Source: Escherichia virus TH06. From it: a stretch of 64,000 bases of DNA. Position numbers and translations under genes: made by a program. The notes under the pieces were generated by a model. That model was not told the origin of the DNA. It saw only the letters and a program-made list of their open reading frames with translations, and did not search any database. Positions 37,942-49,015 of this stretch are shown here, piece after piece. Where the stretch lies: sequence record MT446386.1. One strand, given 5' to 3'. Positions within the stretch are counted from its first letter, which is position 1. The number at the start of each line of letters is the position of its first letter.

Positions 37942-38070
37942 GAATCCCGTAGTAAGCAGTAAGTAACAACAAGTAGTAAAAACTCCTCGATAGGTGATTA
38001 GCATCACGGTAAAAGGCTTCAACGGGGAGCGGTAGGAATACCGACAGTAAGACGCACAATGAAGGTGCTA

Positions 38071-38084
38071 CGCTCTTTAAAAAT
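38071..38084 (+). repeat. copy 1 of CGCTCTTTAAAAAT motif
   Basis: Exact 14-mer. Confidence 0.6.
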
Positions 38085-38119
38085 CAGGCTAGAAAGTGAA
38101 AATATTCTTAAAAAGAGTA

Positions 38120-38148
38120 TTGACACCAGAAAAAGCCTGATACATAAT
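38120..38148 (+). promoter_or_regulatory. sigma70-type promoter
   Basis: AAAAAGAGTA TTGACA, 17 nt spacer, CATAAT; downstream GAGCACTCA nearly identical to the 38608 promoter. Confidence 0.55.
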
Positions 38149-38179
38149 GAGCACTCATTCAGCGATGAATCAAAACATC

Positions 38180-38194
38180 CCGCTCTTTAAAAAT
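38180..38194 (+). repeat. copy 2 of CCGCTCTTTAAAAAT motif
   Basis: Exact 15-mer followed by ATGA. Confidence 0.6.
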
Positions 38195-38449
38195 ATGATT
38201 TGTCTTACAGGTGGCGGTAACGTCATTACTATAAGGCGCTTAGTTGATCGCTAGAATTGATTCCTGATTCATACGTGAATAGGCGGACGAAGAGCAACAA
38301 AATAAGCCTCATTTGTTCGATACTTTCAAATGGTCGATGCTTGAAAGCGCACTAGATTCCTAAAAGACAAATCAGACTTATCATCTTGCCCTTTCGCAAA
38401 GATTCAAGCGAGATAAGGGAACGGAATAAAAGAAGATGATAAAAAGAGT

Positions 38450-38477
38450 TTGACAAGCTAACACGATGTGTTAAGCT
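38450..38477 (+). promoter_or_regulatory. sigma70-type promoter (weaker -10)
   Basis: AAAAAGAGT TTGACA, 16 nt spacer, TGnTAAGCT extended -10. Confidence 0.4.
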
Positions 38478-38489
38478 GTAAATGCTCCA

Positions 38490-38504
38490 CCGCTCTTTAA
38501 AAAT
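38490..38504 (+). repeat. copy 3 of CCGCTCTTTAAAAAT motif
   Basis: Exact 15-mer followed by ATGA. Confidence 0.6.
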
Positions 38505-38607
38505 ATGAATCATAAGTTTAAGCCTCACCGCTTAATCCTCAATCAAATAAAGCTGATTGATATATCCTCCCAATAGCGGGAACGACGAAAAAAGATTAAA
38601 AAAGTGG

Positions 38608-38636
38608 TTGACAGCGAAAACAACATGATTCATAAT
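38608..38636 (+). promoter_or_regulatory. sigma70-type promoter
   Basis: AAAAAAGTGG TTGACA, 17 nt spacer, CATAAT. Confidence 0.55.
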
Positions 38637-38725
38637 GAGCACTCACTAAGCAAATCACCGCTTCAGTGAAAAGCGCAACAACGGCTAACAGTTGCATAGC
38701 GTGAGAAAGCACGCTGATAGGTTTA

Positions 38726-38740
38726 CCGCTCTTTAATAAT
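38726..38740 (+). repeat. copy 4 (variant) CCGCTCTTTAATAAT
   Basis: One mismatch relative to the other copies. Confidence 0.5.
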
Positions 38741-39557
38741 TTAAACATTCTCCTATATCGGTTGAATATGCTTGATGATAATAACCATCGGAAAGCATAC
38801 CAGATAAAACGGTGTAAGATTCTCTAAACTATCAGAGAAAACAATCTTACAATCCCTTGCTGGAAACGTCACCACTGATAAACGGATTCATTGAGTGTAC
38901 GCAAAGACTTAAGCTAATCGCCCACGGTTAAGGGTAGCGGCGGTCATCGCTAACAAGGCGCTACAGTGAAAGAAGTTAATCAGGGTAGGCAAGCCCGAAG
39001 AATTAACGCTCAATTGAGAGCGGCGGGGAGTGGTTAAAAAGTGGCAAATTGCTATTTAACAATAAGGTTTAGTGTGAACGTTTACGATGTGAATGATTTG
39101 AGGCCACTATCGATGGCGTACATAGTCAGTTTATGTAGTAAACTTGCCGAAAGATATAAAACGTCAGAACATTAGACGGTCAATGACTCTTTCACAATAG
39201 CATCCCGTTGTGGGCGATGGCTAGTGATTGAGAGTTGATACAAAAGGATAGGCGAGAGCGAAAGCAAAGTAGACGATATTGCCGACGGTTACAATAAACG
39301 TAACTAATTAGAGTCGGACGCACTGCCTTATTGTGATGATTGATCATCGCTATCAGGTCGGCTTCGTTTATAGCGACTAATTAAAGATACCAGATGAAAC
39401 ATCACGGATAAGGGGGCGGCAAGGTTAACTCCTGATAAGACCGCCCCGCTTATCAATAATTACTTAACAATGAGTGGTTATTGATAAGTTAATAGTGACT
39501 TAAACAAGCTCATAGAGAGCGGGGCAATAGCGCCCTTACAATTGAAAGGTGAATATC

Positions 39558-40457: not shown

Positions 40458-40481
40458 GTAAGACAGTTTAAATAAACATAA

Positions 40482-43325: not shown

Positions 43326-43544
43326 ATGGAAATTAAAGTAGTTGATTATCCTAAATATGCAAATGCAGAAGATGTTAAAGGTGGTGATGTTTTCTCTTAC
43401 GACAGACGTTTCTGGCTGATGTTAGAAGATAAAACTCCCGATGGTTTATGTAAGGCCGCCAATCTGAACAGCGGTTCTGTTGAAGTCTTCGGTCTATCAA
43501 CCACTGTTATGCCACGCCCTGATCTGTGTTTATCCCAAAAGTAA
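43326..43544 (+). CDS. small paralog-family protein (array 1, member 3)
   Basis: MEIKVVD ... GGDVFSY ... FWLML. Confidence 0.45.
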   Translation: MEIKVVDYPKYANAEDVKGGDVFSYDRRFWLMLEDKTPDGLCKAANLNSGSVEVFGLSTTVMPRPDLCLSQK

Positions 43545-43552
43545 CATCGACT

Positions 43553-43655
43553 TATAGCCCTTGTGTTTATCAGAGGGCTATGTGAGGGTGTTCCTCATTA
43601 ACTTATTAATTCAGGCATATGCCACACCGCTAGGGAGAGCTTGCTCGAACATCCG
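43553..43655 (+). repeat. conserved ~100 bp element, copy 1
   Basis: Shares TATAGCC hairpin with GAGGGCTATGTGAG, GCTAGGGAGAG and CTCGAACATCCG with 49016..49126. Confidence 0.55.
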
Positions 43656-43902
43656 GTGTTAGACTAAAACCTGTTCAATTTCGGTAGACTTTCCACTACG
43701 TAGGGGTACGTATTGGTTTGGGATTCAGGAGATCTCCTAGGGGTAGGAGGTCTTCACCAGTTGGGATAAGAGATAGCTCTAGAACCTGAACTCTTAGGCA
43801 GAGAGGGTCGGCAATGAGTACGCGGTCAGAATTAGCCTCCTGACTAGGGCTATCCCTTATATCAACTGGCAATAATGCCTCCACTAATAAAGAGAGAACG
43901 TT

Positions 43903-44043
43903 ATGAAGAAGTCAACCAAGCGTATGAACCGTCCTGAGCGTATGGATGCAGTAGCAAATGGTGCACTGAAGATCGAGTCTGCCATGCTGCGTCTGATGGG
44001 TAACATCCGTAAGCGTCAAGGTGGTTGGGTTTACAATAACTGA
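43903..44043 (+). CDS. hypothetical small basic protein (46 aa)
   Basis: Hand-translated MKKSTKRMNRPERMDAV...; weak RBS. Confidence 0.25.
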   Translation: MKKSTKRMNRPERMDAVANGALKIESAMLRLMGNIRKRQGGWVYNN

Positions 44044-44209
44044 TTTAATAAAAGGCTGCCTAGAAATAGGTGGCCTTTGTTGTTTTAATTAAGGGTCAAC
44101 TCTTACTTAAACTAACAACGGGTGTATGGTATTGACAGGCATCGGCACGGAACTTGTTACCAACAAGGTTGGCGAATCAAGACCTCTGTGAAGCTCCGAA
44201 GAAATCAAG

Positions 44210-44237
44210 GCAGGTTCGACTCCTGCTCCCCGACCAA
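44210..44237 (+). other. tRNA-like T-arm plus acceptor-3'-like segment (not a complete tRNA)
   Basis: GCAGG-TTCGACT-CCTGC followed by TCCCCGACCAAATC; no matching 5' acceptor strand found. Confidence 0.2.
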
Positions 44238-44256
44238 ATCAGCAAGAGGTGCTTAT

Positions 44257-44610
44257 ATGAGAAGCATGGTTAAAGATTGGGTAACTAAATCAGGTCTTCG
44301 TGCTGTGATTATGCACATGAACGACTCCCACTTTTGTGGATATGTAGAGCTACCAGACAGCTTAAAACATAAAAACTTCACCGGATATAACGGGAATGAA
44401 GAAGTTTGTTATGTAAGTGTTCATGGTGGTGTCACATGGCAAGATACCCTTGAAGAGATGGATGGTTTAGATACAATCGGATTTGATTGTGCCCATGCAG
44501 GTGATAAGACACGGTTCAACCCTAACGGGGTTCCAAGAACAGAAACGTTCTGCATCAACGAATGCGAACAAATGGCTGAACAACTAAGAGATCTCGAATC
44601 AAATGTCTAA
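44257..44610 (+). CDS. hypothetical protein
   Basis: ATG with RBS AGAGGTG; the track's longer form starts in unlikely upstream sequence. Confidence 0.45.
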   Translation: MRSMVKDWVTKSGLRAVIMHMNDSHFCGYVELPDSLKHKNFTGYNGNEEVCYVSVHGGVTWQDTLEEMDGLDTIGFDCAHAGDKTRFNPNGVPRTETFCINECEQMAEQLRDLESNV

Positions 44611-44779
44611 GCAAACAATCAAACATACGCAAGCTGGTTACTCTTATATCAACTCTCCTTGTTGTGGTGCTCGTGTGAATCTGGTTAAGGAAGAGGTTCG
44701 TATCGTTCAGCGTGGCGCTACTGTTGTCCGTTCATGCTGTGTCTGTGGTAATGACATTTTTATCAAAGGTAAAGTATGA
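44603..44779 (+). CDS. small zinc-ribbon-like protein (58 aa)
   Basis: SPCCGARV ... SCCVCGND; below the track cutoff; ATGA overlap with next gene. Confidence 0.35.
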   Translation: MSKQTIKHTQAGYSYINSPCCGARVNLVKEEVRIVQRGATVVRSCCVCGNDIFIKGKV

Positions 44780-45027
44780 AAAACTTCCAAGCTGCACCAA
44801 TCACGAAAGTTATTTCAGTTGATGATGTGATGATGACTGTTCCTCTGAACACTCGTTACATTGCAATTGACAAGATGGGTTATGTATGGGCTTGGAAGAT
44901 TAAGCCTAGCTATAACGCACTGTTCGACGAGTTTGTTTGTACTGGTACGTATAGCCCTACGTTCTTGGGTTTGTTTGGAGAGTTCGAAGGTCAGTATAAA
45001 ATCATCACTCTCCCTGCTTGTGCTTGA
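44776..45027 (+). CDS. hypothetical protein
   Basis: ORF with start/stop overlap. Confidence 0.45.
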   Translation: MKNFQAAPITKVISVDDVMMTVPLNTRYIAIDKMGYVWAWKIKPSYNALFDEFVCTGTYSPTFLGLFGEFEGQYKIITLPACA

Positions 45028-45034
45028 GGTTAGT

Positions 45035-45199
45035 ATGTTCAAGTGGTTTAAACGTCTATTCCATCTGCACGATTGGGTAATTCTCGAGAAGTATACACTA
45101 AAGATCACTGATGATTATGGTGGTACGAAACATAAAGGTTTACGTTATATCATGCAGTGCAAAACATGTGGTTGTATCACCAAGCGGGATATGATCTAA
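45035..45199 (+). CDS. small Cys-containing protein
   Basis: RBS GAGGT; CKTCGC motif; C-terminal part of track ORF 44861..45199. Confidence 0.35.
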   Translation: MFKWFKRLFHLHDWVILEKYTLKITDDYGGTKHKGLRYIMQCKTCGCITKRDMI

Positions 45200-45207
45200 A
45201 TAATTCT

Positions 45208-45283
45208 GCGCTCTTAGCTCAATGGATAGAGCAGTAGCCTTCTAAGCTATTGGTTACAGGTTCGAGTCCTGTAGGGCGCACCA
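45208..45283 (+). tRNA. tRNA-Arg (anticodon TCT)
   Basis: Hand-folded cloverleaf: acceptor GCGCTCT/AGGGCGC with one G-U, D-arm GCTC/GAGC, anticodon stem GTAGC/GCTAT, loop CTTCTAA, T-arm ACAGG-TTCGAGT-CCTGT, encoded CCA. Confidence 0.7.
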
Positions 45284-45377
45284 CATTTAGGGCTAGTATG
45301 GGTGCGGCACCAGAGTTAGTGTATCCCTGTTGAGGCAAGTGCTTTTATAACAGTGGGAATTACTTTCTTAGTGAGCT

Positions 45378-45404
45378 TCTGGTTCGATTCCAGATAGTCC
45401 ACCA
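45378..45404 (+). other. second tRNA-like T-arm plus 3' segment (no canonical cloverleaf)
   Basis: TCTGG-TTCGATT-CCAGA followed by TAGTCCACCAAATC; shares the ACCAAATC tail with 44210..44237. Confidence 0.2.
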
Positions 45405-45423
45405 AATCTAATAGGAGGTAATT

Positions 45424-45723
45424 ATGAGTTGGGGTGGTGTAATATCCTTAATCTGTATCTTCCTTGTCTGTGTGGCCCTTACAGGCTGCGTACAGAGCCG
45501 CCCTGATGGGTGGTGTGCAGTAGCAGTGGATGGTATTTGTGTATCTCGCTGGCATTCAGGAAACAAGATTCCTAGTGGTGAGATTGATATGCGCTACAAC
45601 GGGGCAACCTGCTCTAATGCTAACCCTTCTATCAACGAAGAGAAGTCTACGCCAGACAATGTTGTGATCGATACAGCGTTGTGGTGTGGCGGTTCTGTAA
45701 CAACAACCGGTAAGGAGTGGTAA
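45424..45723 (+). CDS. lipoprotein (possible superinfection-exclusion protein)
   Basis: Signal peptide with lipobox ALTGC; Cys-rich mature part; early-region location. Confidence 0.45.
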   Translation: MSWGGVISLICIFLVCVALTGCVQSRPDGWCAVAVDGICVSRWHSGNKIPSGEIDMRYNGATCSNANPSINEEKSTPDNVVIDTALWCGGSVTTTGKEW

Positions 45724-45724
45724 T

Positions 45725-45886
45725 GTGACTATTGAAGAACTCATTAGAACTCTTGAAAACTTATCTGTTACTTGTGGTCCAGATGCTATCGTCTACATCG
45801 AAGAACCTTCAGGGAATGAATACCCTGTGAAAGAGGTTCTTGAGTACTCAGTAGGAGATCTTTCATCAGTAACCCTAAGACATTGA
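45725..45886 (+). CDS. hypothetical small protein (GTG start)
   Basis: AAGGAG 7 nt upstream of GTG; hand-translated. Confidence 0.25.
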   Translation: MTIEELIRTLENLSVTCGPDAIVYIEEPSGNEYPVKEVLEYSVGDLSSVTLRH

Positions 45887-45887
45887 G

Positions 45888-46142
45888 GTGTATATGACAG
45901 CTCATTATTGGAATACAAAGAAGCTTCTTGAAGAGATGGCTGGGGGTAGTAAGTTCCAGTTAAACTCCATGCTTCGAATGGATGCCCGCTCTTTACGTTT
46001 CCAAGTAAAGATTGGTAACTTCAGTGATGGACTTTATTATACCTTGAAAGAAAGGATTAAGAAGACTCACTTCATCATATATGGACTCAAACCGAGAACA
46101 TATGTTAACTACATGTATTGGGATACATGCTACGATAATTGA
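45888..46142 (+). CDS. hypothetical protein
   Basis: RBS GAGGTG. Confidence 0.45.
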   Translation: MYMTAHYWNTKKLLEEMAGGSKFQLNSMLRMDARSLRFQVKIGNFSDGLYYTLKERIKKTHFIIYGLKPRTYVNYMYWDTCYDN

Positions 46143-46149
46143 GGTTATT

Positions 46150-46371
46150 ATGTTATTTGAAGCTAAGCAAACATTACCAGTAGTTCCTTTGTCTACACTT
46201 CTTAGTGGGAGTGCTTTTAGACATGATAATGGTTTTTGGATTAAGGGCGACCAAGAGGTTGGAGGGTATATTACCTGCATCAACATCTGCAACGGCGTTG
46301 TTGACGGATTTCGTCCAGCCGCTGAAGTCACTCCTCAATCCAACGCAAAGGTTGTAGGTTTAGTTTACTAA
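46150..46371 (+). CDS. hypothetical protein
   Basis: In-frame ATG with RBS GAGG inside track ORF 46081..46371. Confidence 0.4.
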   Translation: MLFEAKQTLPVVPLSTLLSGSAFRHDNGFWIKGDQEVGGYITCINICNGVVDGFRPAAEVTPQSNAKVVGLVY

Positions 46372-46380
46372 GGAGCCTGT

Positions 46381-46554
46381 ATGAGTTGTTTTGGTGGCGG
46401 TGAAGTAGATGACGATGATGACATGGAATCCAACGGTACATGCCCTGATTGTGGGTGTGAGACATTTGATGGGGTGTCAGTATATCCTGCCTGTAGTTAC
46501 TCACCAGTGATCTGTAAAACATGTGGAGATCAGCCTTGTGATCAATCTTGTTAA
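46381..46554 (+). CDS. small Cys-rich acidic protein (57 aa)
   Basis: Strong RBS AAGGAG; CPDCGC ... CKTCGDQPC. Confidence 0.4.
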   Translation: MSCFGGGEVDDDDDMESNGTCPDCGCETFDGVSVYPACSYSPVICKTCGDQPCDQSC

Positions 46555-46563
46555 GAGAATCTT

Positions 46564-46695
46564 ATGACTGAAGAATTTTTAGAGTGGTTTAGTGACACCT
46601 TCAAAGAATACCTATTCACTCCAGAAAGTTTAGAAGAGTTGAAAACCTACACTTGGTTGGCTTGGAGAGATAGCCGACGAAAAATGAATAAGTAA
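46564..46695 (+). CDS. hypothetical small protein (43 aa)
   Basis: Hand-translated. Confidence 0.25.
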   Translation: MTEEFLEWFSDTFKEYLFTPESLEELKTYTWLAWRDSRRKMNK

Positions 46696-46706
46696 GAGAC
46701 GATTAA

Positions 46707-46964
46707 ATGGGTTTACTTGATATTTTTATCTCAGTTTACTTTATTGGAGTATTCCTCTCTGTTTTAGTGCTGAAACTGCTATACAAGAAAGGTCTACTAA
46801 AAGGGGTCATTACAACAGAGTCTACCAGCTCTGAACCTGATGAGATGATGGTTGTGCTCTTAATTGTGTTGTGGCCTATCTCAATACTGGCAGGAGTTTT
46901 TTATCCAATAGGTTTGCTTCTGTTTAAAGCATATGACGCAGTTATGCATTTTATCTTTAAGTAA
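46707..46964 (+). CDS. small membrane protein
   Basis: Two hydrophobic helices. Confidence 0.45.
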   Translation: MGLLDIFISVYFIGVFLSVLVLKLLYKKGLLKGVITTESTSSEPDEMMVVLLIVLWPISILAGVFYPIGLLLFKAYDAVMHFIFK

Positions 46965-47175
46965 TATCGTGAAGGATTCTTACGAGAGTCCTTTGAGATA
47001 GGACTTCAGATCTCCTATCAAACTAACATTCATGTAACTAGCCCATAAGGGCGTTACCCTTTAATAACCCAGCCCACTAAGGGGGCGGGAGTTTAGTGCT
47101 GGATTGGCTTTACGCTTATTCCTACAAAGGCAACCGATTGTTAGATCTTACATGCAATATTAACTAATAGGATAA

Positions 47176-47206
47176 GGGAGGATTCGTCCCCTCCCCCTAT
47201 TTTATT
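47176..47206 (+). terminator. intrinsic terminator (weaker U-tract)
   Basis: GGGAGG-ATTCGTC-CCTCCC then CCTATTTTATT. Confidence 0.45.
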
Positions 47207-47254
47207 GAATCTTTATCTAAGCAAGTCTTACATAAATATTTAATTGGAGGATGT

Positions 47255-47566
47255 ATGAAAGCTCGAAGAACTATATGGACTCCGATGCAGATTGAAAATC
47301 TTCGGAGACTAATCAAAGAGTACTCGGTTCAAGAAGTTGCTCAGATTATGAATGTAACGGAGAATGCAGTTAACACAGCTTGTACTAAATTCGGAATATC
47401 AAGAGCTTCAGTCCGAGTTAAATGGTCTGAAGAAGAAGATCAGTTCCTTATCCGTAATGCTGGGTTCATGCCTATTCAGAGAATGGCTGACATGCTCGGT
47501 AGAAGTTATGCTGCTGTACAGAACAGGGCATGTATGCACCTTAATATTAGCCTCAAACTTAAATAG
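47255..47566 (+). CDS. putative DNA-binding protein with two HTH-like repeats
   Basis: Internal repeat W(T/S)..Q...L...I...... both ending in A(V/A)(N/Q)(T/N)(A/R)A. Confidence 0.4.
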   Translation: MKARRTIWTPMQIENLRRLIKEYSVQEVAQIMNVTENAVNTACTKFGISRASVRVKWSEEEDQFLIRNAGFMPIQRMADMLGRSYAAVQNRACMHLNISLKLK

Positions 47567-47574
47567 GAATCAAT

Positions 47575-47823
47575 ATGAAGATTACTCACAAGAAAGAAGA
47601 AGTGTCCACGGTTGATATCAACTCTCTTCCTAGTGGAGCAGTATTTAAATTCCCTGAGAGTTCTACTCTCTATGTCAAAGGGTCTGTGTCTGAAAGTCCT
47701 AATGTAACCGTTAACTCCGATCGAGCAATCACTCTTCGTCTATCTGATGGTAACGTAACAGCCCCTTCTATCTGGTGCCGAGTTGTCCCTGTATCGGCAG
47801 AACTTTTGGTGGATAATACATAA
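47575..47823 (+). CDS. small paralog-family protein (array 2, member 1)
   Basis: MKITHKK ... SGAVFKF ... LYVKG. Confidence 0.45.
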   Translation: MKITHKKEEVSTVDINSLPSGAVFKFPESSTLYVKGSVSESPNVTVNSDRAITLRLSDGNVTAPSIWCRVVPVSAELLVDNT

Positions 47824-48068
47824 TGAAAATCATCCCAAAGAAAAAGGATAATACGGTACGATTGGAAACAATCATTCCCGGAAACCCTTTCGTGGTTCAG
47901 AACGGAAGTGCCTCTCCTCAGTATTACATGAGGGTTGAAAATGCTTCTGGTAACATTCGTATAGCCAGTGGTTGGGTTCCTGTGGTAAACCTTTCCACAG
48001 GTGTGTTATCTGTTAAAGGTCTTGATGATCAGGTAGAAATGATTCGTATGTCAGTGGTTCAGGAGTAG
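47823..48068 (+). CDS. small paralog-family protein (array 2, member 2)
   Basis: MKIIPKK ... PGNPFVV ... YYMRV. Confidence 0.45.
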   Translation: MKIIPKKKDNTVRLETIIPGNPFVVQNGSASPQYYMRVENASGNIRIASGWVPVVNLSTGVLSVKGLDDQVEMIRMSVVQE

Positions 48069-48322
48069 TGCATATGAGCATTATTAACATTAAAGTTAAA
48101 GACAAAGAGGAAAAAATCCTCCGCGTCAGAGATCTAAATATGTCAGATGTGTTCACTCTCCAAGAGTGCCAAAATCAAAAGGTTTATATGATGACAGCTA
48201 AAAGCAGGGGTTGTCAACCTGCTGGAGCTGTTAACCTAGGCACTGGAGAACTACGTGTCATCTCTGGTGATATGGTTGTTGGTGAGAAGTTTATTAAGGC
48301 TGAAATCATCTTAACTTCGTAG
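48068..48322 (+). CDS. small paralog-family protein (array 2, member 3)
   Basis: MSDVFTLQ ... VYMMT. Confidence 0.45.
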   Translation: MHMSIINIKVKDKEEKILRVRDLNMSDVFTLQECQNQKVYMMTAKSRGCQPAGAVNLGTGELRVISGDMVVGEKFIKAEIILTS

Positions 48323-48330
48323 GAAAACAA

Positions 48331-48447
48331 ATGAGACGTAAAGCATATTCTTATGACGATATGATTAACCAGAAAGGCTTCGGTCAACGACAGCCTGACG
48401 GTTCAATTATCTGGTTCGTAAACGGACAGAAAAAGGTAGCTAAATAG
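48331..48447 (+). CDS. hypothetical small protein (38 aa)
   Basis: Hand-translated; weak support. Confidence 0.2.
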   Translation: MRRKAYSYDDMINQKGFGQRQPDGSIIWFVNGQKKVAK

Positions 48448-48553
48448 GCTCTCTTCTCTCCTCCTTTTAGTACTATGACGCCTCTCTGTGGGCGGCCCAA
48501 TTTGCGTAGGGAATTCCCTCTACGCAGCCATAACTTTTTAAGGAATTTCCCCT

Positions 48554-48787
48554 ATGTCTAAAGTAAGCGCAATTGATGCAATCCGTCAACCATTCCAGTT
48601 CCAATCTAAATCAACCCAAACCTTCAGTGAGCCTAAGCAAATTCGCTTGGGCGGCACAGAGAAGACTGTGTTTGATCTGGCTAAAAACAAGAGCGTTACT
48701 GTAGTTGATGGTGGCACTCTGGTTAACGTTTCCCATCGCATCCGCACTGGCAAAACTGCCAAAGATCGTGCTAAGAAAGGCGAGTAA
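48554..48787 (+). CDS. hypothetical protein
   Basis: ORF with start/stop overlap to the next gene. Confidence 0.45.
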   Translation: MSKVSAIDAIRQPFQFQSKSTQTFSEPKQIRLGGTEKTVFDLAKNKSVTVVDGGTLVNVSHRIRTGKTAKDRAKKGE

Positions 48788-49002
48788 TGATAACACTTGT
48801 GTCGATCGTTTACAGAATACACTACCGTCTAGACAAAGGTAAAACCTATAAGTGCAAGAGTAAGACAGGCAATAGATGCTCTGTAGAAAACAACTCTGGT
48901 CAATGGGTGGATGTACCTTGTTGTTGGTTCAGGAAAGACTTGACTAACAAAGAAATTGACGAAATCCTTAGTGATGGTTTTGTAAAATCAAGTGATTTTT
49001 AG
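48787..49002 (+). CDS. hypothetical Cys-containing protein
   Basis: ATGA overlap. Confidence 0.4.
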   Translation: MITLVSIVYRIHYRLDKGKTYKCKSKTGNRCSVENNSGQWVDVPCCWFRKDLTNKEIDEILSDGFVKSSDF

Positions 49003-49015
49003 TTGTAGTAACGCC

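Follow-up and report, generated by a model that had tools for sequence, protein, structure and literature searches.

This report concerns a non-coding element that occurs twice in a stretch of 64,000 nucleotides (nt) of Escherichia virus TH06 (record MT446386.1; the window), a phiEco32-like podophage (Kuravirus). Judged from sequence comparison, the element is an RNA-level, strand-specific and deeply conserved fold of early transcripts, and we hold with considerable confidence that it is a functional RNA structure, whatever its mechanism. The domain is about 115–125 nt long, lies on the transcribed + strand and begins 5–13 nt after a stop codon in every case examined. It consists of five helices, namely the hairpins P1, P2 and P3 followed by a hairpin, P4/P5, that is split by an invariant 7x7 internal loop. 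No description of the element was found in Rfam or in the searchable literature (two primary phiEco32 papers lie outside that search), and within those sources the P1–P5 fold appears to be previously undescribed.

Covariation, strand and conservation

An alignment of 23 distinct sequences from four phage genera was fitted to the covariance model, a procedure that favours the structure, although the copies can also be aligned by sequence. In it all 497 scored cells pair, and compensatory changes occur in 7 of the 22 pairs, among them three of six pairs in P4 and one of four in P5. As a control the 3′ partners were slid by 1–3 columns, upon which pairing fell to 32–46%. Among 14 copy-2-type sequences taken by themselves, all 304 cells pair, with double-sided changes in 5 pairs. 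A covariance model built from 14 copy-2-type sequences with no copy-1 sequence included (model R1) nevertheless matched copy 1 over its full length (61.8 bits, E = 1.3e-10) and every copy-1-type sequence at E of about 1e-10, and it found no third copy in the window. The inner pair of P2, followed through 36 distinct instances, was always Watson-Crick (U-A in 17, G-C in 13 and C-G in 6). A first-pass annotation, made from the letters of the window without database searches, had suggested selection on RNA structure, and the wider comparison supports this, with stems that survive compensatory and wobble changes and loops that vary.

The constraint extends to two positions of the internal loop beside P5, here X and Y, which read A/G in 23, C/A in 10 and A/A in 3 of 36 instances, and C/G in none. 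The C/A state is found in three separate lineages (Suseptimavirus copy 1, copy 2 of NJ01, and the pair SE131 and 7-11), and SeKF_80, a close relative of that pair, has A/G. This pattern fits an isosteric non-Watson-Crick pair. Tandem sheared A.G/G.A pairs beside P5 seem likely on our own reasoning by eye. The K-turn, the loop E or sarcin-ricin motif and the UAA/GAN motif were also compared with the 7x7 loop by eye, and none fits its register.

Three of the pairs are U.G, in 37 cells in total, and these favour the + strand, since they would be C.A mismatches on the other. The predicted fold of copy 2 is likewise more stable on the + strand (−39.0 kcal/mol, z = −2.6) than on the − strand (−27.9 kcal/mol, z = −0.4), and all neighbouring genes lie on the + strand too. 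Conservation is higher within the element than around it: over its 126 nt, identity is 95% or more in 71 of 98 phage records, a level reached by the 1.2-kb surroundings in 4 of 118.

Position and anatomy of the two copies

The first-pass annotation had placed the copies at 43553–43655 and 49016–49126, and re-reading of the sequence bears out both, together with their shared hairpin (TATAGCCCT...AGGGCTAT in copy 1 and TATAGCCTT...AGGGCTAT in copy 2, with one U.G pair in copy 2), the GTGAG that follows it, and GCTAGGGAGAG and CTCGAACATCCG further on. Those intervals take in only part of the feature; the conserved domain is that listed below. The pattern CTAGGGAGAG-N(2-20)-CTCGAACATC occurs exactly twice in the 64 kb and in none of 100 shuffles, and exact matches to the hairpin-plus-GTGAG string AGGGCTATGTGAG are confined to the two copy sites.

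43551–43665, + strand: copy 1 of the RNA domain (P1–P5), a full-length match to model R1 whose single-sequence minimum-energy fold is P1–P5
43554–43581, + strand: P1 of copy 1 (UAUAGCCCU.../...AGGGCUAU), 8–9 nt past the stop codon of the open reading frame (ORF) 43326..43544
43582–43598, + strand: P2 of copy 1 (UGAGG/CCUCA), of which the 5′ arm is the GTGAG just mentioned
43599–43613, + strand: A/U-rich single-stranded linker of copy 1 with a conserved UAAC, from the alignments
43614–43623, + strand: P3 of copy 1, a mini-hairpin (GGC-AUAU-GCC) with double-sided changes in two of three pairs
43624–43659, + strand: P4 of copy 1 (ACACCG/CGGUGU) enclosing the internal loop and P5 (GAG-CUUG-CUC), with compensatory changes
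43630–43636 and 43647–43653: internal-loop strands of copy 1, CUAGGGA and GAACAUC
49014–49136, + strand: copy 2 of the RNA domain, scoring 144 bits with R1 and supported by its fold energy
49016–49039, + strand: P1 of copy 2
49040–49056, + strand: P2 of copy 2
49057–49078, + strand: linker of copy 2
49079–49090, + strand: P3 of copy 2
49091–49130, + strand: P4, internal loop and P5 of copy 2

The helices differ in what is kept. P1 has the general form UAUAGCC(C/U)U.../...AGGGCUAU with a free apical part; its outer six pairs are invariant in 23 of 23 sequences and its inner pairs vary between U.G and C-G and between U-A and A-U. P2 occurs as UGAGG/CCUCA, UGAGU/ACUCA or UGAGC/GCUCA, and P3, a hairpin of 3 base pairs (bp) with an RUAU loop, as GGC/GCC, GCC/GGC or CCC/GGG. 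P4 reads ACACCG/CGGUGU in copy 1, CCGAUG/CGUCGG in copy 2 and UCGGUG/CGCCGA in the Salmonella phages, and P5 has 3–5 bp and a variable tetraloop. Between P4 and P5 lies the invariant, symmetric loop, with CUAGGG(A/C) as its 5′ strand and (G/A)AACAUC as its 3′ strand. What was noticed at first only as conserved strings, GCTAGGGAGAG and CTCGAACATCCG/CTCGAACATCC, corresponds to the two strands of this loop plus the arms of P5. ViennaRNA predicts the P1–P5 arrangement independently for each copy, with minor differences in the extent of P2 and P3. P1 was also considered as an intrinsic terminator and rejected, because no U-run lies behind it; the bases that come next are GUGAG, which form the 5′ arm of P2, and the terminator scan does not report P1.

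The window is oriented in reverse of the phiEco32 reference. Copy 1 lies between homologues of phi32_113 and phi32_112 and copy 2 between those of phi32_91 and phi32_90, both within a long block of + strand early genes. Similarity between the two copies, which are non-coding, is about 70%. The first-pass annotation had each copy follow an array of paralogs, a detail that the comparison does not bear out, as the ORFs directly upstream have no detectable paralogy (BLASTP E = 0.058 over 19 amino acids; all-against-all search). Because these flanking ORFs are not detectably related, the similarity of the copies is not a side effect of a recent gene-block duplication, and that explanation was rejected. 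Coding or recoding was rejected as well, since the short frames through the core differ between the copies and a read-through or frameshift product would lack conservation.

Distribution among phages

BLAST searches with both copy regions returned about 100 related Escherichia and Shigella phage records, with EC.W2-6, EC.W14-3 and EC.W8-1 the best at 99%. A search of related genomes had been proposed by the first-pass annotation as a check, and it recovered the element from four phage genera. It is present in about 100 records of Gordonclarkvirinae (Kuravirus, Nieuwekanaalvirus and Suseptimavirus), with two copies in every such phage examined save EcoN5, which has three. In EcoN5 a tandem duplication of the copy-2 block with neighbouring genes (L013, 13105–13227 and 14623–14745) accounts for the three elements. 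The Salmonella Moazamiviruses 7-11, SE131, SeKF_80 and pSal-SNUABM-01 have one copy, of copy-2 type, in the genome parts examined, and it lies in the same place, in the gap before the terminator and the operon with COOH-NH2 ligase, amidoligase, glutamine amidotransferase and ATP-grasp genes. In IMG/VR and in JGI/ENA metagenomes, pattern scans gave true matches confined to the same phage groups; 18 other pattern matches, in soil and freshwater contigs, lacked the P4/P5 pairing and had no model score.

There were several GenBank records in which coding sequences for hypothetical proteins are annotated across the element, on either strand (L009, 8019–8186, which is Bas88_0103; L020, 12019–12159). 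These are probably false gene calls over a structured RNA, and such annotations, Bas88_0103 for example, merit revision.

Sequence behind copy 2

Three further features lie behind copy 2.

49138–49179, + strand: tail antisense to the leader of the host nrdD mRNA, containing a perfect DnaA box at 49151–49159
49159–49176, + strand: hairpin P6 behind copy 2 (AGAUAUU-GGGU-AAUAUCU) with a U-rich run after it, missing in SE131 and 7-11
49194–49218, + strand: intrinsic terminator (GACUCU-UUUC-GGAGAGUC plus U6), from the consensus scan, 20 nt before ORF 49238

In 5326 of 5426 complete E. coli genomes one chromosomal site, and no other, matches the tail, with 86–95% identity; in the one match examined (L063) this site lies directly upstream of the ATG of nrdD, a gene that runs on the other strand. 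It follows that + strand RNA of the phage is the complement of the nrdD leader between about −47 and −9, a stretch that stops beside the GGAG Shine-Dalgarno sequence. The predicted duplex of tail and nrdD leader has −58 kcal/mol, against −28 ± 3.7 for shuffles. In the reciprocal search, E. coli DNA upstream of nrdD matched phages only of the phiEco32-like group among 50,697 phage records. An NrdR-box promoter lies about 165–220 nt upstream of the nrdD ATG, as placed by oligonucleotide sequences (PMC12176259), and the matched part of the leader should for that reason be transcribed. In six aligned E. coli-phage sequences the tail is identical up to GGGT (about 49136–49169), and the U-rich sequence past P6 differs. 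The Salmonella phages retain only AAGA..GGTTATCCACA(G) of the tail, and SE131 has a pairing of about 19 nt to the Salmonella nrdD leader, one G.U included. The stem of the terminator is conserved across the E. coli and Salmonella phages and its loop varies, and a terminator is annotated at the equivalent place in the records of SU7, 7-11 and 4E8.

What is found at copy 2 is what would be looked for in a small RNA: hairpin P6 at 49159–49176, UUUUUGUGUUU, a terminator with a U-tail at 49194–49218, and complementarity near the nrdD start. We infer that such an RNA may act in trans on nrdD.

The leader DNA of host nrdD itself has two DnaA-box sequences (TTATCCACA) in E. coli (L063, 2517–2525 and 2592–2600) and in Salmonella (L064, 1518–1526 and 1595–1603), conserved between the two hosts and positioned downstream of the NrdR and FNR promoter sites. 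We know of no described role for these boxes.

Sequence behind copy 1

A different arrangement follows copy 1, in which the head is succeeded by a conserved single-stranded stretch (UAGACUAAAACCUGUU) and then by three further hairpins, P6, P7 and P8, of which the last is a long stem that leads to the Shine-Dalgarno sequence and start of a short ORF.

43693–43716, + strand: P6 behind copy 1, with a GGGG loop (RNAalifold, 8 phages)
43728–43755, + strand: P7, with a GGGG loop (same analysis)
43759–43867, + strand: P8 (same analysis)
43903–44043, + strand: ORF of 46 amino acids, basic, homologue of phi32_112, followed by a terminator-like hairpin at 44051–44088

Compensatory changes were found in all three hairpins. 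The first-pass annotation had both copies at the 3′ end of an early operon, which is right for copy 2 with its terminator; behind copy 1 there are some 240 nt more of structured RNA and the 46-amino-acid ORF before the next terminator. The protein begins MKKSTKRMNRPERMD... and has a Lys/Arg-rich N-terminus (MKKSTKRMNRPER), and the homologues found for it are close and unnamed only. Its ORF is preceded by a structured leader of 360 nt in all, and its homologue in 7-11 (gp135) sits behind a zinc-finger ORF annotated as ‘antitermination protein Q-like’. The copy-1 region has no detectable match in E. coli genomes.

The tip of P8 carries an insert of 58 nt (43783–43840; BLAST match 43780–43846) in Kuravirus and Nieuwekanaalvirus and not in Suseptimavirus. 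It is 79% identical, in the same sense, to the part of the leader that separates nutL from the N-like antiterminator gene 24 in the P22-like Salmonella phages SE1, ST160 and SEN22, with an exact core of 22 nt (TCGGCAATGAGTACGCGGTCAG). The arms of P8 (GAUAGCUCUAG and CUAGGGCUAUC) echo those of P1, so that P1 and P8 might conceivably pair with each other instead. The motif UAGGG(G/A) is repeated at exposed sites, at 43630, 43702, 43738, 43848 and 49097, that is in the internal loop of both copies, in the GGGG loops of P6 and P7 and in the 3′ arm of P8.

Early transcription context

Strong sigma-70 promoters lie in a non-coding stretch of about 1.5 kb at 38060–39550 (TTGACA-17-CATAAT at 38120 and 38608, TTGACA at 38451), and early genes on the + strand occupy about 26 kb behind them. 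Beyond 38.6 kb no other strong sigma-70 promoter was found in the 38–52 kb scanned, and both copies would therefore be read from these promoters far upstream. Terminator-like hairpins occur in the same interval at 40480, 41892, 44051, 47176 and 49194. A boxA-like sequence, CCGCTCTTTAA(A/T)AAT, is present at 38070, 38180, 38490 and 38726, four times in 700 bp; the window has 9 boxA-like copies against 2.7 expected, and the exact form CGCTCTTTAA is found at 38070–38735. Three of the copies are 35–90 nt downstream of promoters and the first is about 50 nt upstream of the promoter at 38120. By its sequence the cluster suggests Nus-factor antitermination of early transcripts, and with CGCTCTTTAA behind their early promoters these phages appear to use elongation control.

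Proposed function

The explanation we favour, and put forward tentatively, is that P1–P5 serves as a head for processing and stability, which sets the bounds of the non-coding RNA behind it and presents its loop to a protein. The domain would fold on its own, be carried in the early polycistronic + strand RNA driven by host sigma-70 and act as RNA, not as a promoter. Placed right after a stop codon, it would form a structured head that delimits and stabilizes what lies behind it, and a protein of host or phage would recognize it through the invariant internal loop. At copy 2 the head would precede a single strand of about 40 nt, invariant in the E. coli phages compared and antisense to the nrdD leader, and after that a hairpin, a U-rich run and the terminator, an anatomy like that of small RNAs derived from 3′ untranslated regions (UTRs); at copy 1 it would stand ahead of the 240-nt structured leader of the gene for the 46-amino-acid basic protein. 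This explanation is preferred because the same head precedes two different non-coding RNAs, because the element always abuts a stop codon, because a strong 5′ hairpin could protect a processed end and an A/U-rich single strand follows it, and because the downstream part of copy 2 resembles a small RNA, which gives the terminator a purpose. A bolder version, which we think unlikely as it stands, is that P1–P5 is the protein- or polymerase-binding head of a new class of regulatory RNA and that the released copy-2 RNA (about 49014–49218) pairs with the nrdD leader and reprogrammes anaerobic synthesis of deoxynucleoside triphosphates during infection in the gut.

Several points weigh against the processing and stability head. 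No transcriptome of a phiEco32-like phage (Kuravirus) was found in the literature, and the discrete RNA species are predicted only. The precise isosteric conservation of the 14-nt loop is more than a plain nuclease site or a stabilizing hairpin would need. Copy 1 has no close terminator and no match to E. coli DNA, so that the small-RNA picture is limited to copy 2. The retention in Salmonella phages of the tail core AAGA..GGTTATCCACA(G) and nothing else fits selection for a DnaA box at the level of DNA equally with an RNA seed. Finally, two serial heads on one transcript, with a terminator behind copy 2, fit an antitermination device too.

PhiEco32 is a model for phage takeover of host transcription through its sigma factor gp36 and through gp79, and its relatives serve as therapeutic coliphages. 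To our knowledge no RNA-level control has been described in phiEco32-like phages. If the element does act in processing, in antitermination or in the biogenesis of a small RNA, it would be a missing layer of early gene control. Any account of that control must say how genes spread over about 26 kb and several terminators are served from a single promoter cluster. The nrdD antisense, if true, would be a rare case of an RNA from a virulent phage aimed at a defined metabolic gene of the host. A deeply conserved fold supported by covariation in about 100 genomes from two phage groups is a ready target for experiment.

Alternative explanations

The main rival, which we consider unlikely, is processive antitermination or read-through of the kind mediated by put RNA, in which the nascent domain would bind elongating host RNA polymerase and carry it past early terminators. 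Such read-through would explain early transcription across several terminators and the siting of a conserved terminator between the element and a long operon, and the setting described above speaks for it: about 26 kb of early genes, five terminator-like hairpins and no other strong sigma-70 promoter in 38–52 kb, with apparent elongation control from the boxA-like CGCTCTTTAA behind the early promoters. Copy 2 lies 60 nt upstream of a conserved terminator and the long operon only 20 nt beyond it, there are two copies as there are of putL and putR, and the invariant loop could be a contact for polymerase. Against it, the copies are serial on one transcript rather than in two operons, some 500 nt separate copy 1 from the terminator that follows, the terminators before copy 1 (40480 and 41892) have no such element, and the terminator of copy 2 could be explained differently, by a small RNA that ends there. 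R1 also had no match in the complete HK022 genome, which contains putL and putR, at E ≤ 10, and there is no Rfam match.

It is rather improbable that the element is an operator for an RNA-binding protein, acting in translational repression or in protein-dependent antitermination, for which the 46-amino-acid product of 43903..44043 would be the candidate. A purine-rich invariant loop with isosteric covariation is typical of protein or peptide sites, the N-terminus of the candidate is rich in Lys and Arg (MKKSTKRMNRPER), and in Kuravirus its ORF is preceded by the 58-nt insert that is like the leader of the N-like gene 24 in P22-like phages. Yet the homologues of this protein are close and unnamed only, Salmonella phage 7-11 has the protein with no copy-1 element ahead of its gene, and no direct link between protein and RNA was found.

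A riboswitch or attenuator, with P1–P5 as the aptamer that sets termination at 49194 and so controls the amidoligase and COOH-NH2 ligase operon, is more doubtful still. It would agree with invariant junction and loop bases alongside variable stems, and with an order of copy 2, terminator and enzyme operon that is kept from E. coli to Salmonella phages. Against this, Rfam 15 gave nothing that overlaps either copy even at E ≤ 10 (searched over 43400–49400), and at the gathering threshold its only match in the window was a tRNA-Arg. No conserved antiterminator pairing between domain and terminator was found across the E. coli and Salmonella phages, as the candidate AAGAGC/GCUCUU is missing in the Salmonella phages; about 60 nt, including the DnaA box, separate the two; and copy 1 stands ahead of unrelated genes without an adjacent terminator.

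A DNA-level element, such as part of a replication origin or a single-strand initiation signal used with host DnaA, is very improbable. Its attraction is the perfect DnaA box (GGTTATCCACA) 20 nt behind copy 2, invariant in all E. coli and Salmonella phages compared and in all copy-2-type loci, and hairpins in single-stranded DNA would also tolerate G.T wobbles. The box is a single one and not part of a cluster, it falls outside the shared P1–P5 domain, and copy 1 has none. The turning points of GC skew are near 4 kb and 36 kb, and an origin at 49 kb was rejected for want of any skew signal there. An RNA accounts better for the siting just past stop codons, on the strand that is transcribed, and for a fold that favours one strand.

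The first-pass annotation had also suggested a promoter for the phage sigma factor. Promoters dependent on gp36 consist of one element only, tAATGTAtA, with its centre near −11, and lack a −35 element (PMC4281155, PMC12276001). With up to 1 mismatch no + strand site of this kind lies in or beside either copy, the nearest such motifs being elsewhere and mostly on the − strand. A promoter for gp36 or for host sigma-70 can hardly be entertained: the GAAC in CTCGAACAT does resemble a −35 element of extracytoplasmic function (ECF) sigma factors, but the gp36 consensus has no such element, the CTC of CTCGAACAT is the 3′ arm of P5, the GAAC bases belong to the covarying loop and helix, and the G/A following CTC covaries with a base about 20 nt upstream, which would be unexpected in a promoter hexamer, while the 9/12 sigma-70-like match within copy 2 (49049–49078) loses its −10 in Suseptimavirus as well as in the Salmonella phages and does not exceed chance expectation, 18 promoter-like sites having been found against 31 expected.

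Comparison with known RNA elements

The RNase III sites of the T7 early region (R0.3, R0.5, R1, R1.1 and R1.3) are a first point of comparison, and the mRNAs that flank them are stabilized once the sites are cleaved. Like the present element they are repeated, similar to one another and placed in intergenic gaps past stop codons of an early operon read by host polymerase, and each is a hairpin interrupted by a conserved internal loop. A site of this type would be expected to have about two coaxial turns of double-stranded RNA and an internal loop where it is cut. The T7 sites, folded for comparison, differ in having a conserved, near-continuous upper stem of about 9–13 bp over an interrupted lower stem (CUCAAGGUC...GGCCUUUAUGAU), whereas here P4 (6 bp) and P5 (3–5 bp) provide 9–11 Watson-Crick pairs around a 7x7 loop. 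Their conserved sequence is dissimilar to the element, and the covariance model R1 had no match in the T7 early region with its five sites. A processing site of the T7 type was rejected, since stem layout and sequence both appear unlike those of T7.

The nut sites of lambda and P22 and the boxA of rrn operons are likewise RNA signals in early transcripts and present in more than one copy. The P1 stem GCCCU/AGGGC coincides with the stem of lambda boxB, and the copy-1 linker CUCAUUAAC resembles boxA (CUCUUUAAC), with 8 of 9 positions agreeing with a GCUCUUUAACAA-like criterion. The P1 loop, in contrast to that of boxB, is variable and 7–15 nt long, and because it is not conserved, recognition of the boxB type is excluded; the resemblance to boxA is absent from copy 2 and from the Salmonella versions. 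Identity with boxA or boxB was rejected on these two grounds, and R1 had no match in a P22-like PL/nutL region or in the upstream regions of host nrdD.

A parallel in architecture is found in putL and putR of HK022. Put RNA acts in cis, suppressing termination by the elongating polymerase to whose beta′ zinc-binding domain it binds. Here too there are two related multi-hairpin copies of 70–120 nt in phage early transcripts, with stems kept and loops varying, sited upstream of terminators and with no dedicated protein obviously needed. The put elements are known for their binding of RNA polymerase, whereas P1–P5 is likened to them by architecture. They have no match to it in sequence or structure, each consists of two stem-loops (about 70 nt) against the five helices here, and the copies in the present phages are serial on one transcription unit.

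Terminator-ended (Hfq-type) small RNAs that enterobacteria derive from 3′ UTRs, of the CpxQ and SroC type, and small RNAs of phages or prophages directed at host mRNAs, such as DicF, are the remaining comparison, and concern copy 2; the prophage small RNA svsR was considered as well and is unrelated. Copy 1 lacks this architecture, and the shared P1–P5 head is without counterpart among them (no Rfam match). These RNAs are known as discrete transcripts, and the likeness of copy 2 is one of sequence anatomy. The complementarity at copy 2 is unusually long (about 37 of 40 nt) and coincides with a DnaA box. In its order of parts copy 2 is nonetheless like them: it starts after a stop codon with structured RNA, goes on to a single strand that is complementary to a host mRNA beside the ribosome-binding site, and closes with a hairpin, a U-rich run and a terminator with a U-tail.

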